NCBI GenBank assembly: GCA_964016885.1
Contig: OZ024743.1
Location: forward strand, 259,780,001-259,844,000
Source: Eledone cirrhosa
Lineage: Eukaryota
Direction of reading: 5' to 3'
DNA length: 64,000 nucleotides
Shown: one piece after another, positions 37,045 through 60,577 of the stretch
Position numbering within the stretch: position 1 is the stretch's first letter
Layout of the letters: each line of letters begins with the position of its first letter
Notes under the pieces: generated by a model
What the model saw: the letters and a program-made list of their open reading frames with translations, nothing else
Databases searched by the model: none
What the model was told of the DNA's origin: nothing
Position numbers and translations under genes: made by a program

Positions 37045-37089
37045 AGCTGACAGAGCTCTGTTTCGTACTATTTGGTACTTATCAAAGCT
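37045..37089 (-). ncRNA. Type I hammerhead ribozyme, U3-A8 core
   Basis: Minus strand AGCT-TTGATAA-GTAC caaata GTAC-GAAA-CAGAGCTCTG-TC-AGCT; stem I extends past an internal loop (CAGGTGGAG / CTCCCCCTG). Confidence 0.88.
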
Positions 37090-37318
37090 AAGTACTCCAC
37101 CTGCCTGCTGAAAATCATGAATGTTTGATTCTTATAGAATTCTAGTAATAATCAGGAACTGATTATACATTCATATATATATCGCTATTTCAGAGCACCA
37201 ATTCTAATTTTCAATTTCTGCATGACCGGCAACCGCTCTATATAATCAGTTCCTCATTATTACTAGAATTCTATAAGAATCAAACATTCATGATTTTCAG
37301 CAGACAGGTGGAGTACTT

Positions 37319-37363
37319 AGCTTTGATAAGTACCAAATAGTATGAAACAGAGCTCTGTCAGCT
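37319..37363 (+). ncRNA. Type I hammerhead ribozyme, U3-A8 core (other arm)
   Basis: AGCT-TTGATAA-GTAC caaata GTAT-GAAA-CAGAGCTCTG-TC-AGCT; GUC cleavage after 37359. Confidence 0.85.
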
Positions 37364-37556
37364 TTATCTCCCCCTGTTTGCTGAAAATTTAAAGTAAGTG
37401 AGACTGTCACTACTCTAAAATAATAGCCTAAGGTCTTCAAATGCTTTTAATTAAGCATACAGTGTATTGCAAAATACACTATATATATATATATATATAT
37501 ATATATATATATATATATATATATATATATATATATATATTAAAATAACAGATTAA

Positions 37557-37607
37557 AGTTTAAGCAAAGAATCGCTGCTTTCACCCTTAACGGGATCTTC
37601 TGAAACT
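37557..37607 (-). ncRNA. Hammerhead-like motif with CAGAAGA core; 72-bp solo insertion from the 3' end of the 46.5-48.8 kb Penelope family
   Basis: Minus strand AGTTT-CAGAAGA-tCCC gttaa GGGt-GAAA-GCAG cgattct TTGC-TT-AAACT; matches 46518-46593. Confidence 0.65.
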
Positions 37608-37624
37608 AACAATATATATATATA

Positions 37625-57110: not shown

Positions 57111-57594
57111 ACAGCAAATCTAACACACTCTTCATAATCACCGCCAGCCAGAAAGAAATAACTTTCAGCGCTTGAAAATGTTCAGATATATTTAGCTGGC
57201 ATCAATAAAGGCTGTAACGAACGGCAAGGCAATTAGATACATTATATAGAGTTGTTTTCTATATAATAAGGAACATTTGCTTTGTATATTGATTATTTTT
57301 CCACACCTTTAGCAAATTTTTAATAAAACCCTTGATTGCCATCAAGTGGTGAATTTTTGATTTACCAGTAAACAAACGGAAGCCAGAATTCTATAGCATA
57401 CTTCACATCGCTATCTTCTCTTTTAATGTGCTGTTGCTGCTGCTGTTGTTGTTGTGGGTGTTGTTGTTGTGTTGTATTTTTGTTGTTGCTGTTGTTGGCG
57501 TTATTGTTGTACTTCTTTCCATTCCATTTTATACTCTTTTATGTTTCTCTTACTCTTTTAAACCTTGATGTTTCAATTTCGGATCTGTCACACA

Positions 57595-58520
57595 CGTGAC
57601 AAAAGCTGTTCGACATAAACCTCCAGGTCAGCAATACTCGGGCACTGGAAGAGTGCGTTTAGGACAGTTTCGTCGCATATCAGATATGCTCTGATGATGG
57701 CACTTCCTTACCAGTAGAGTTTATTTCGAACTGGGAACACTCCGTGTTAGCATTGTGAGGCCAGGCATTTCTGTAAGTTATGCATGGTTTCTGGACCGAA
57801 ATTCCGGAAAGAAGTGGCTAGTTGATCAACAAAGTGGAATTTCCACCTATTGGCACAGGGCTTGAAGACATTCCAGCTTCCAGACACTCCCTCTAGGTTC
57901 TCTCTTGACTCAGCACTGGATCTCTGCCAATGACCTGGGGAAACACATGTCTCTCAAACAGCGACTATAGTTGTTTAATGTAAAGGAAGAGCTAGAGATG
58001 ATGTAGTCCCAGCGCAAGTTTACGTAATATCAGCTTCGGTATACCCAGTCCTCCACGAGCAGGTGTTGGCAGCAAGTGGACAGCCTGAACATTGGCACGG
58101 GCCACTTCCACAAAGAGTGAAAAAGAAAACATTTCAGTGTAGTCAGGCGTTGAACATGACAGGCCACAACGGTCAGGTGGTAGGAAATGACGAAGGCGAT
58201 GTACACGTTCGCAACCTCTTCCCGACTTTTCAGGGATAGCTTCCTCTCGGCCCATTTCTGGGTGAGAGTTACAACTCTGCTTGTTACCTCATCCAAGTAT
58301 TTATTCATTTGGAGATTTGGACCTAACCAGACCCCAGCAATTTAACCGGTCCGTCCATCCAGTACTCGACGACTCTATTGGACGGCACAGACCTGCCTCT
58401 CCAAGTGCCGAGTTGTAGGTCCTTTGACTTTTCTGGTTAATTTTAGCTCCTGTTACCGCTTCGTACTCCATGAGAGCGGTGCTGACTATCTCAGTGTATT
58501 TGGTGACGTCGTTGGCATAT
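57595..58520 (-). mobile_element. Fourth Tx1/L1-type LINE fragment
   Basis: DEVTSRVVTLTQKWAERKLSLKSREEVANVYIA and YANDVT; colinear with 3810-4845. Confidence 0.85.
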
Positions 58521-59603
58521 CCAGAGTCTCTTGAGAGTCAATACATTCAAAATAGACGAGTGAATGTGGCCTTGGAGGACTGTGAAGCCTATCAAAATCG
58601 ACTGCACAAAATGGTAATAATATTAGTAATGGTGATAATAACAATAATAAATAGCAACAGCAACAACAGCAACAGTAGCAGCAGTAGCAGTAGCAGCAAC
58701 AGCAGTAGAAGTACTACTACTGCTACTACTGGTAGTAGTAGTACTACTACTACTACTACTACTGCTGTTGCTGTTACTAGTAGTAGTAGTAGTAGTAGTG
58801 GTGATTGTGGTGGTAGCTTATTATTATTATTACTTTGTATCAGTTCTGTTTCTCTTTCAGCGTTTGAATAGGGCCATAGAGGGTAGAATTGAATGTTCTT
58901 AGCCAGTAATAAATATTTCAGCAACCCGTCATTAGTATACAATAATAAAAGTATTTAAAAGATTTGAAATAATAAACTAAAAGAGGGAGAAAATAAAAAG
59001 AAAGGGTACAGAAAGAAGATTTTACTGATAAAAACGGGCAGATGAAAGAGATGGGGGGAAAACTCTATACTTTTAGCTGAGCGGTGCATCTTACAGTGAC
59101 CCGCAAACAAGATGGCTAAAACATTAACGCGGAGAAGAACTAGCGAAACCCGCTACACCAGCCATTCATTTCAACATAAATCAAGACGATGCCCCTGCAC
59201 CCACGCAGTCTAACGAATAAAAGAATAACATTTAAGTCCACTTACGTCTTTATTTCTGCTATAGCACTGATGCTAACCCACTCCATAAGTTTCTCCAATG
59301 AGAAACATCTGAATATCTGTGAAACGTTGTCACCATAATGATTATTAAGATTAATTTATATAATAGAGTCAGTAATAAAAGCATATGATATAAATATTTT
59401 CGTATCATTAAAATTACGAATATACAATTGTGTATAATAAATATGTCTTTTATGCAACGGAGGTGCGACAAAACTGACGATGCATGCCACTCTAGACAAG
59501 CCACTCTCAAAGATTCTGCTGTTGTTGTTTTTTTACCCCGGATCCCCTGATTCAGCAGATCTATTACAAAAATATTCCTGCCATGACCAGTTTACCCCTG
59601 TCA

Positions 59604-60012
59604 CTATCTATATACTAATAAAACTCTGTGATTGTGTGCTTGTCTGTAATTTAATACAGCCACAACTGCGCATAATGGGAAAATACTTTGAAAGGAAGTT
59701 GACCCTGAAAAGGGAATACGTATGGAATAAAACAAGTTTCGCATAAATCGGAGCACGGGTTTCCTAGATACAGGGTTTTTCCTAGTACCTTCATAAAGAG
59801 ACAGAGAGAAAGATAAAGAGAAAGAGATAGTGGTTATCAGACAGTAGTTTGAAAGAGAGAGAGAGAGAGAGAGAGAGAGAGAGAGAGAGAGAGAGAGAGA
59901 GAGAGAGAGAGAGAGAGAGGAGACAGAGAAGGAAAATGGACGAGTGAGAGAGAGAACTGGGGTGTAGTTCAATGAAATTTTAACAGGTGACTTCAAAGAA
60001 TCAAATAAAGCA
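59604..60012 (+). mobile_element. Dispersed repeat, possibly Helitron-like; homolog of 48821-49345
   Basis: Reverse-complement match on both sides of the (GA)n tract. Confidence 0.5.
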
Positions 60013-60481
60013 ATACTGTATCTAACTCGAATTTGGTGACTGAATATGAAGTTATATGTATCATATAAATAGTGTTAGGACAGGATGTATGTTGAGAATA
60101 TTTCCTGCTAAAGAGGAAGGGTTTTTCTAAGTGGGTGTGTACATGTATATATATATATATATATATATATATGTGTGTGTGTGTGTGTGTGTGTGTGTGT
60201 GTGTGTGTGTGTGTGTGTGTATATATGTGTGTGTGTATATATATATATGTATATGTGTGTATGTGATCTGTGTATATAAGTCACAGGCACCCATATATAT
60301 ATAAACACACACACACACATATATATATATATATACATATATATACATATATATATACATATATATATATATATATATATATATATATAATGAAGGAATT
60401 GTGGTAAGGAACCAGATGGGCCATAACGCACCAGAGTACTCAATACTTAGGGTAGTAGAGTGGATAATAGGAAAAAGTATG

Positions 60482-60577
60482 ACCCCGAAGGCAGAACTCA
60501 AGCCGTTTCGACGGCTATTTCAGGACTAAATTAACATTTTTAGCCTGGTAAATAAATAGTCGAACTTGTCAAGGGGT
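60482..60577 (-). ncRNA. Second copy of the 50395 U3-A8 hammerhead, slightly decayed (element 60392-60727)
   Basis: ACCCC-TTGACAA..GAAA-CGGC..GCCT-TC-GGGGT; one stem III mismatch. Confidence 0.72.

Follow-up and report, generated by a model that had tools for sequence, protein, structure and literature searches.

The stretch of DNA considered here, referred to as the window, comprises 64,000 nucleotides of Eledone cirrhosa (contig OZ024743.1, positions 259,780,001-259,844,000) within a 3.0-Gb assembly; it is 62% AT and contains many microsatellites. It carries six hammerhead ribozyme motifs, placed by our analysis in terminal repeats of Penelope-like elements (PLEs), in which the canonical C3-G8 pair of the core is replaced by U3-A8. 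A sequence-only reading of the window had drawn attention to these motifs, and all six core heptamers were found where it had placed them, its coordinates being the ends of the motifs. The features concerned are as follows.

36876..37169, minus strand: inverted arm of family A (non-coding PLE-type unit of ~321 bp), with (TA)n at its end; 96% to that unit
37045..37089, minus strand: hammerhead A; core UUGAUAA at 37085-37079; predicted cut after 37049
37164..37500, plus strand: direct arm of that same family A insertion
37319..37363, plus strand: hammerhead A of the second arm; core UUGAUAA at 37323-37329; stem II includes a single G-U; predicted cut after 37359
42354..42394, minus strand: hammerhead C, on a solo 3' end from a Neptune-type PLE family; core UUGAAAA at 42391-42385; 3-bp stem I
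50380..50640, minus strand: terminal repeat of family B, from the 3' end of a Hydra-clade PLE; 94% identity with 60467-60727
50395..50490, minus strand: hammerhead B; core UUGACAA at 50485-50479; predicted cut after 50400
51685..51764, minus strand: partial inverted arm of the C2 insertion
51821..51856, plus strand: hammerhead-like motif of C2; core UUGAAAA at 51824-51830; GCAA, with C at position 13 (51845)
60467..60727, minus strand: terminal repeat of family B, second insertion, from self-BLAST
60482..60577, minus strand: decayed hammerhead B; core UUGACAA at 60572-60566; cut site reads UUC; stem III of only 3 bp

Every one of the six motifs has U at position 3 and A at position 8, and the motifs of the window follow the type I order: 5' strand of stem I, core positions 3-9, stem II, GAAA, stem III, UH and 3' strand of stem I. 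Stem I is 3-5 bp long, and weak in C and C2. At 37045 the parts are stem I AGCU/AGCU, stem II GUAC/GUAC, GAAA, a palindromic stem III and GUC; at 50395 they are stem I ACCCC/GGGGU, a long stem II, GAAA, a 5-bp stem III with a GAGCUC loop, and GUC. The motif at 42354 consists of stem II GCAG/CUGC, GAAA, stem III ACCGGU, which folds solely as a dimer, and GUA, and that at 51821 has stem II GCAU/AUGC, the same stem III ACCGGU and a weak stem I, UUU/AAA. The stems differ among the families, pairing being nonetheless kept. In families A, B and C the invariant U4, G5, A6, A9, G12, A13, A14, A15.1-U16.1, H17 and G10.1-C11.1 are present, except that the 37319 arm has a single G-U at 10.1-11.1; C2 lacks the invariant A13 and is classed as a hammerhead-derived, putative ribozyme. 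Judged from their sequence, the six motifs are type I hammerheads in PLE terminal repeats, with predicted cleavage; the copies in the window are insertions that have been truncated and are probably inert.

The palindromic stem III segments of A and C pair far better between two copies than within one, the folding energy of the dimer and the monomer being -20.1 vs -1.8 kcal/mol in A and -8.3 vs 0 kcal/mol in C. The B hammerhead can fold alone (monomer fold z of -2.6); the corresponding values are -0.56 for C and +0.45 for C2. Two copies of each of three families had been described. This holds for B, which is represented by two insertions, whereas in family A a single insertion supplies both motifs, at 37045 and 37319, in its inverted arms, and those at 42354 and 51821, between which self-BLAST gave no match, belong by sequence comparison to separate sister families, C and C2.

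The structure scan, in which positions 3 and 8 were left free, was applied to 100 systematic 10-kb stretches (1 Mb), with reversed DNA as the control. It yielded 87 motifs, compared with 2 in reversed DNA, and family-specific patterns applied genome-wide gave 0 matches in controls; a chance origin of the motifs is excluded by these controls. The core was C3-G8 in 70 motifs, U3-A8 in 11, the mismatched U3.G8 and C3.A8 in 2 each, and other in 2, with tandem copies in two loci accounting for 17 of the canonical motifs. At a stricter score, 83 motifs fell into 22 clusters (15 C3-G8, four U3-A8, one each U3.G8, C3.A8 and A3.C8). Mismatched cores were not as common as U3-A8 in this sample, the U3.G8 and C3.A8 clusters each being single-copy. 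The U3-A8 core had been called rare, which does not fit this genome: it accounts for the 11 motifs and four clusters just given, and C2 copies, invisible to the structure scan, add a further 6 per Mb. Rough extrapolation from the sampled density gives a few hundred thousand hammerhead motifs for the whole genome. In the window, the strict scan recovered four canonical motifs and four of the six U3-A8 motifs, missing 51821 and the damaged 60482; a fifth canonical one came from a separate search. The Rfam scan of the window found no hammerhead above threshold, its sole hammerhead match being HH9 at 37027-37102 (20 bits, E 2.5), under the gathering score. That canonical-core searches miss such motifs had been anticipated, and the same was found by Cervera and de la Pena 2014 (PMC4209133); in this genome they miss roughly 13-19% of hammerhead motifs.

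Genome-wide, family B gives 984 matches, or 1,088 with the core unconstrained, and its motif lies about 1.2 kb downstream of an open reading frame (ORF) for reverse transcriptase (RT) and GIY-YIG endonuclease (EN). The proteins of B and of the canonical family E share DKT, CxCX5C, CxxC and CxH motifs, identified by eye, as well as GIY-YIG at the C terminus; the Pfam search gave no match for either. C3 followed by a purine at position 8 occurs in 298 of the 984 matches, with G8 in only 4, so that 294 carry C3.A8. The C3.A8 subfamily has its own diagnostic sites, and in one of its copies an RT-EN match of 519 residues shows 92% identity to a U3-A8 sibling. Another subfamily, with its own stem II loop, has U3.G8 in 13 of 15 copies and A8 in none. 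In contigs derived from the reads of runs X1, X2 and X4, which come from one study and possibly from the source of the assembly, B shows C3 and all four N7 states. The C3-G8 copies of B were considered as an ancestral subfamily; this was ruled out, as they number just 4 of 984 and are scattered on the tree. A G12-to-U change is common to three C3.A8 copies (G000:C1:25434929, 224252243 and 278436234), possibly a small clade having lost the catalytic base. Family E (L212-L240) is a very young Hydra-type PLE with a canonical core, long open frames and many copies 100% identical over 406 bp, and was probably active recently.

Family C is much larger, with 13,173 matches and U3-A8 in all 100 listed. 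In nine loci, an ORF that carries CX4CxxC and CCHH precedes its motif by 1.0-1.1 kb, and the RT/GIY-YIG genes of B, C and C2 sit about 1.0-1.3 kb upstream of the motifs. In the C protein, GIY-YIG passes the Pfam cut-off and RVT_1 falls below it; we take C and C2 to belong to Neptune rather than Nematis. The C2-linked RT is 52-56% identical to that of C at L333 and 41-53% at L331 (three ORF-motif pairs in two loci). C2 gives 3,918 matches; among 100 listed, all have U3-A8 and 99 have GCAA for GAAA (A13C), a change predicted to impair cleavage. At position 13 of C2, the read-derived contigs show no alternative letter at 3% or more. Private decay of the 51821 copy was considered for its GCAA and was ruled out, this being the normal state across the C2 family and the contigs. 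An endonuclease fragment in L101, considered as a part of family C, was assigned by DNA search to family E.

Family A gives 509 exact matches. No consistent RT-EN ORF was found in 30 + 12 A loci, and the family is filed, on sequence grounds, as a putative non-autonomous PLE-type unit. It also occurs in tandem, although mostly as single or inverted insertions in (TA)n. Relatives of A (69-81% alike) have either core, L167 carrying U3-A8 and L209, L130 and L149 carrying C3-G8, and one A copy (L218) shows a compensatory change in stem II. Retrozyme-like tandem arrays were also observed (L130:281-3381, L149 and L183), with 310-bp C3-G8 units in 11 copies in L130 and 592-bp U3-A8 units in L183. At L127:4565-4962, a single inverted insertion has C3.A8 in both arms, its relative in L110 being C3-G8; this is a possible second source of C3.A8.

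U3-A8 is a family state inherited from source elements: it is present in 97 of the first 100 listed copies of A and in all 100 listed of C. Among the copies recovered by homology, none of a canonical family had decayed to U3-A8, and therefore the state comes from source elements; the U3-A8 rows found under F209b are cross-matches to its relative A. One might then regard U3-A8 as a strictly selected compensatory pair and the mismatched cores as just dead decay products. The dominance of Watson-Crick states in the sample (70 C3-G8 and 11 U3-A8 against 2 U3.G8 and 2 C3.A8 of 87) would agree with this, as would the near purity of U3-A8 in A and C and its occurrence on either side of the C3.A8 grade in the B tree described below. 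However, the 294 C3.A8 matches in B, with their diagnostic sites and the 519-residue RT-EN match, the subfamily with U3.G8 in 13 of 15 copies and without A8, and A13C in 99 of the 100 listed C2 matches are all contrary to such an explanation, which we regard as improbable. C3.A8, U3.G8 and A13C are source states rather than decay. The argument that the double change reflects selection on catalysis stands in part, the change by itself being no sufficient evidence for it: the rest of the B core is fixed, but mismatched C3.A8 and U3.G8 subfamilies, and the A13C one, were amplified.

How well the rest of the B core is kept was counted by hand in the first 100 listed of the 1,088 matches. U4 was intact in 98, G5 in 100, A6 in 97, A9 in 97, G12 in 96, A13 in 98, A14 in 100 and A15.1 in 98, while N7 was A in 34, G in 32, U in 21 and C in 13; position 3 was U in 72 and C in 28, and position 8 was A in 95, G in 3 and C in 2. 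In the upstream flank, 53 of 119 columns (45%) differ among five subfamily majorities, and 33 of 125 among four. Finding none of eight core positions variable has a probability of about 0.008 if sites are alike, and of about 0.09 when the lower flank rate is used. Such fixity is the pattern that would be expected from a ribozyme. In the B helices, 90.6% of cells are paired, compared with 31-49% for slid partners.

These data also bear on the view that the hammerheads are largely dispensable passengers, that U3-A8 is where drift from C to T and from G to A ends in an AT-rich genome, and that the region is conserved for another reason, such as RT binding. Both changes are indeed AT-ward transitions, the window is 62% AT, and families with damaged cores were amplified. 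PLE clades lacking hammerheads proliferate well, and it was suggested that hammerheads may parasitise PLEs (Craig et al. 2021, PMC8557442); poor in vitro cleavage by PLE hammerheads was reported as well (PMC4209133). Drift of this kind is difficult to reconcile with the B core, in which the consensus-free N7 changed repeatedly and its eight neighbours remained unchanged, with a U3-to-C or C3.A8 stage, which opposes or interrupts it, and with the retention of C3-G8 in 15 of 22 clusters. We consider the passenger view unlikely, though not negligible.

Trees of B copies were constructed with positions 3, 7 and 8 masked, after removal of rows with truncated flanks (25 of 70, 19 of 75 and 17 of 86). 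They form a ladder, UUGAAGA - UUGAAAA - UUGACAA - CUGAGAA - UUGAUAA, in which U3-A8 lies on both sides of a C3.A8 grade, and a single clade of the U3-A8 rows was rejected by the approximately unbiased test (p-AU 7e-99). Nearest-copy distances down the ladder are 0.109, 0.081, 0.056, 0.041 and 0.034 (n = 7, 13, 10, 25 and 7), values affected by the unequal n. They suggest a temporal order of U3.G8, U3-A8, C3.A8 and again U3-A8, which we favour as the copy-age order of the series with fair, but no more than fair, confidence; whichever way the series runs, a mismatched state served as a source state in B. The youngest subfamily has a long branch in the upstream flank, which suggests replacement of a segment. 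One could go further and see in B a fossil series of the active-site pair, each of the states U3.G8, U3-A8, C3.A8 and U3-A8 having been amplified in turn and the remaining core bases having been kept, with positions 3, 7 and 8 tuning or muting cleavage and with activity held at a selected intermediate optimum instead of being an all-or-none requirement; the spread of the sister of C (~4,000 copies with A13C) would belong to the same picture. This more ambitious version is possible but speculative.

A separate problem is the number of origins of U3-A8. The core-labelled RT tree comprised 15 rows, without reference RTs; clade names rest on protein motifs, and the core label of F196 and of five of the six canonical RT rows was taken from one locus each. 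The claim that the change recurs in unrelated families is borne out for PLE lineages outside one clade: placing all U3-A8 and C3.A8 rows in one clade was rejected (p-AU 0.001), as was a clade of B and F196 (p-AU 0.0014). On the terms of the labelled rows, at least two origins are shown by these sequence trees, and three or more are likely, given the differing clade motifs. One could propose instead that U3-A8 arose once, long ago, or that families exchanged their terminal repeats, reversions having occurred elsewhere. In its favour, B and C/C2 were not rejected as one clade among the labelled rows (p-AU 0.22), and the long upstream-flank branch of the youngest B subfamily suggests segment replacement. 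Nevertheless, the B and C proteins are only 21-23% identical and carry motifs of different named clades, the nearest labelled relative of B is C3-G8 (96/99), and the A, B and C hammerheads differ in every stem. A single origin appears to us extremely improbable.

Taken as a whole, the data are in our opinion best described, with reasonable though far from complete confidence, by PLE hammerheads in which U3-A8 arose repeatedly through tolerated mismatches, selection being loose at pair 3-8. In the mechanism that we propose, type I hammerheads in PLE terminal repeats would cut the RNA of the element, those with a palindromic stem III likely as dimers, and their role, as judged from the literature, is likely to be the release of element RNA from tandem or read-through transcripts. 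U3-A8 likely arose several times, stepwise, by transitions through U3.G8 or C3.A8, and these mismatched stages would still allow the element to spread; the states observed at positions 3 and 8 are all connected by transitions. We infer purifying selection on the whole ribozyme in source elements, loose at pair 3-8, where every pyrimidine-purine combination may be tolerated for a time and the Watson-Crick states would be the longest-lived. At least one lineage, C2, appears to have continued to spread although its core is predicted to be impaired. It is likely that these elements can at times spread without full ribozyme activity. It is known that C3-G8 places the 2'-OH of G8 at the leaving group (PMC11300833). 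In one complete pairwise mutagenesis of this motif, the sole rescuing swap was G3-C8 (PMC9901934), and the activity of U3-A8 therefore depends on context.

It is conceivable that damaged cores are complemented in trans, an intact sibling core pairing with the C3.A8, U3.G8 or A13C subfamilies through the shared palindromic stem III of a dimer and cutting at the site of its partner. Stem III and the cut site are identical across B subfamilies, ACCGGU is common to C and C2, and dimer cleavage was published for PLE hammerheads (PMC4209133, PMC6765202). Yet the stem I strand of C (CCUU) would pair with that of C2 (AAAA/AAAC) by about 2 bp only, and tandem partners within one transcript normally have the same core; we give little credence to such complementation.

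Several observations weigh against repeated origin through tolerated mismatches in ribozymes under selection. There were 0 compensatory double changes in the B helices (13 rows), and covariation was not above shuffles; because of this lack of double changes within helices, the B fold rests on conservation rather than covariation, and the conserved region might also reflect recognition of the RNA 3' end by RT. The monomer folds of C and C2 are weak, and the success of C2 with A13C, together with the 30% share of C3.A8 in B, argues for catalysis being dispensable in part. In the RT tree the root of B lies at the opposite end (94/85), leaving the direction of the series uncertain; under this rooting C3.A8 could be ancestral and compensated twice. 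As regards the number of origins, the joint clade of B and C/C2 was not rejected because C lies on a long branch and no canonical-core relative of it was found, the core label comes from a single locus for F196 and for each of five among the six canonical RTs, and family A has no linked RT, the tree of its group not rejecting one U3-A8 origin (p-AU 0.11).

Apart from the six motifs, the window contains five canonical C3-G8 hammerheads and a PLE remnant.

18356..18444, plus strand: canonical C3-G8 hammerhead of family D; core at 18361; other copies have their cores 483 bp apart, at 50818 and 51301
47267..48810, minus strand: RT/GIY-YIG remnant from a different PLE family; 51-56% identity with the protein of family B

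Family D forms a 483-bp tandem unit (18152-18528 and 50784-51466), whose copies are 97-100% identical genome-wide (1,441 candidates) and in which no ORF or RT was found; its stems I and III look like those of family C. The remaining canonical motifs, at 61549 and 33334 (both minus strand), belong to other families. The remnant at 47267-48810 is the RT of none of the families A, B, C and C2; it represents a young Hydra-type PLE family (96% to L197), seen also in L121, L139 and L281. An inverted repeat (45547-45754 and 46082-46289, 96%) carries CUGAUGA followed by a short hairpin, with no GAAA after it, and is possibly a degenerate or truncated hammerhead. An abundant SINE-like repeat (short interspersed nuclear element) of ~190 bp occurs at 62380-63063, 20284-20617, 15321-15512, 11699-11895, 32479-32669 and 55342-55537 and presumably resembles octopus SINEs. 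More long inverted repeats (86-94%) lie at 37672-38487 with 39974-40809, at 18697-19061 and at 32675-33106, minisatellite arrays with 45-bp and 42-bp units at 35344-36247 and 55764-56450, and an old dispersed repeat family (65-75% identity) at 3491-4770, 9357-10395, 21503-22704 and 57581-58463.

The function of PLE hammerheads was called unclear (Craig et al. 2021, PMC8557442), and whether their cleavage is necessary for movement of the element is a question on which the families described here bear. They provide matched natural variants in one background, namely U3.G8, U3-A8 with each N7 and C3.A8 in B, and GAAA vs GCAA in C/C2; for each variant a copy number and an approximate age are available, so that cleavage rate may be compared with amplification success. 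They also present a compensatory change of which both mismatched states were caught as real subfamilies. In the literature searched, neither these families nor any amplification of mismatch subfamilies was found to be described, although Lunse et al. 2017 (PMC5785218) and Przybilski and Hammann 2007 (PMC1986816) may cover U3.G8, C3.A8 or A13 variants, and the supplements of PMC4209133 and PMC3088659 may list them. Within those limits the amplified U3.G8, C3.A8 and A13C subfamilies are apparently the unpublished part, whereas the U3-A8 swap in PLE hammerheads was already known, and that it recurs across clades within one genome adds modestly to this.

Natural covariation from C3-G8 to U3-A8 was first reported in 2011 for several ribozymes (Perreault et al., PMC3088659); in comparison with the scattered examples given in the cited part of that report, a subfamily history with mismatched intermediates is seen here. 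The closest known system, as far as the cited part of its description goes, is the Cercyon PLEs of Schistosoma mansoni, in which about 1,300 U3-A8 hits vs about 2,000 canonical ones were recorded (PMC4209133, 2014). As in Cercyon, the hammerheads are of type I, lie in PLE terminal repeats, carry U3-A8 and a short palindromic stem III, occur as inverted pairs 100-700 bp apart and are missed by a canonical descriptor. Unlike in Cercyon, a single genome here has U3-A8 both in non-coding tandem units and in two or more named PLE clades, the 5-bp stem III of B is competent to form in a monomer, and C3.A8, U3.G8 and A13C subfamilies were amplified. The architecture of the elements, with inverted arms, (TA)n targets and tandem units, is that of PLEs. 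B and E resemble Hydra-clade PLEs in their GIY-YIG, DKT, CxCX5C, CxxC and CxH motifs and (TA)n targets, C and C2 resemble Neptune/Nematis-clade EN+ PLEs in their CX4CxxC linker and CCHH, and in B, C and C2 the hammerhead is close to the 3' end, as in EN+ PLEs (Craig et al. 2021, PMC8557442). Hydra hammerheads are canonical according to the cited part of the same source, whereas B and F196 have U3-A8, the clade names being given by motifs alone. Family A, finally, is like the animal non-LTR (long terminal repeat) retrozymes (bioRxiv 10.64898/2026.07.22.740005, as cited in part) in that its unit is non-coding, ~321 bp long and equipped with one type I hammerhead, occurs in tandem and has 310-bp relatives in long arrays; it differs from them in its U3-A8 core and in its mostly single or inverted insertions in (TA)n.

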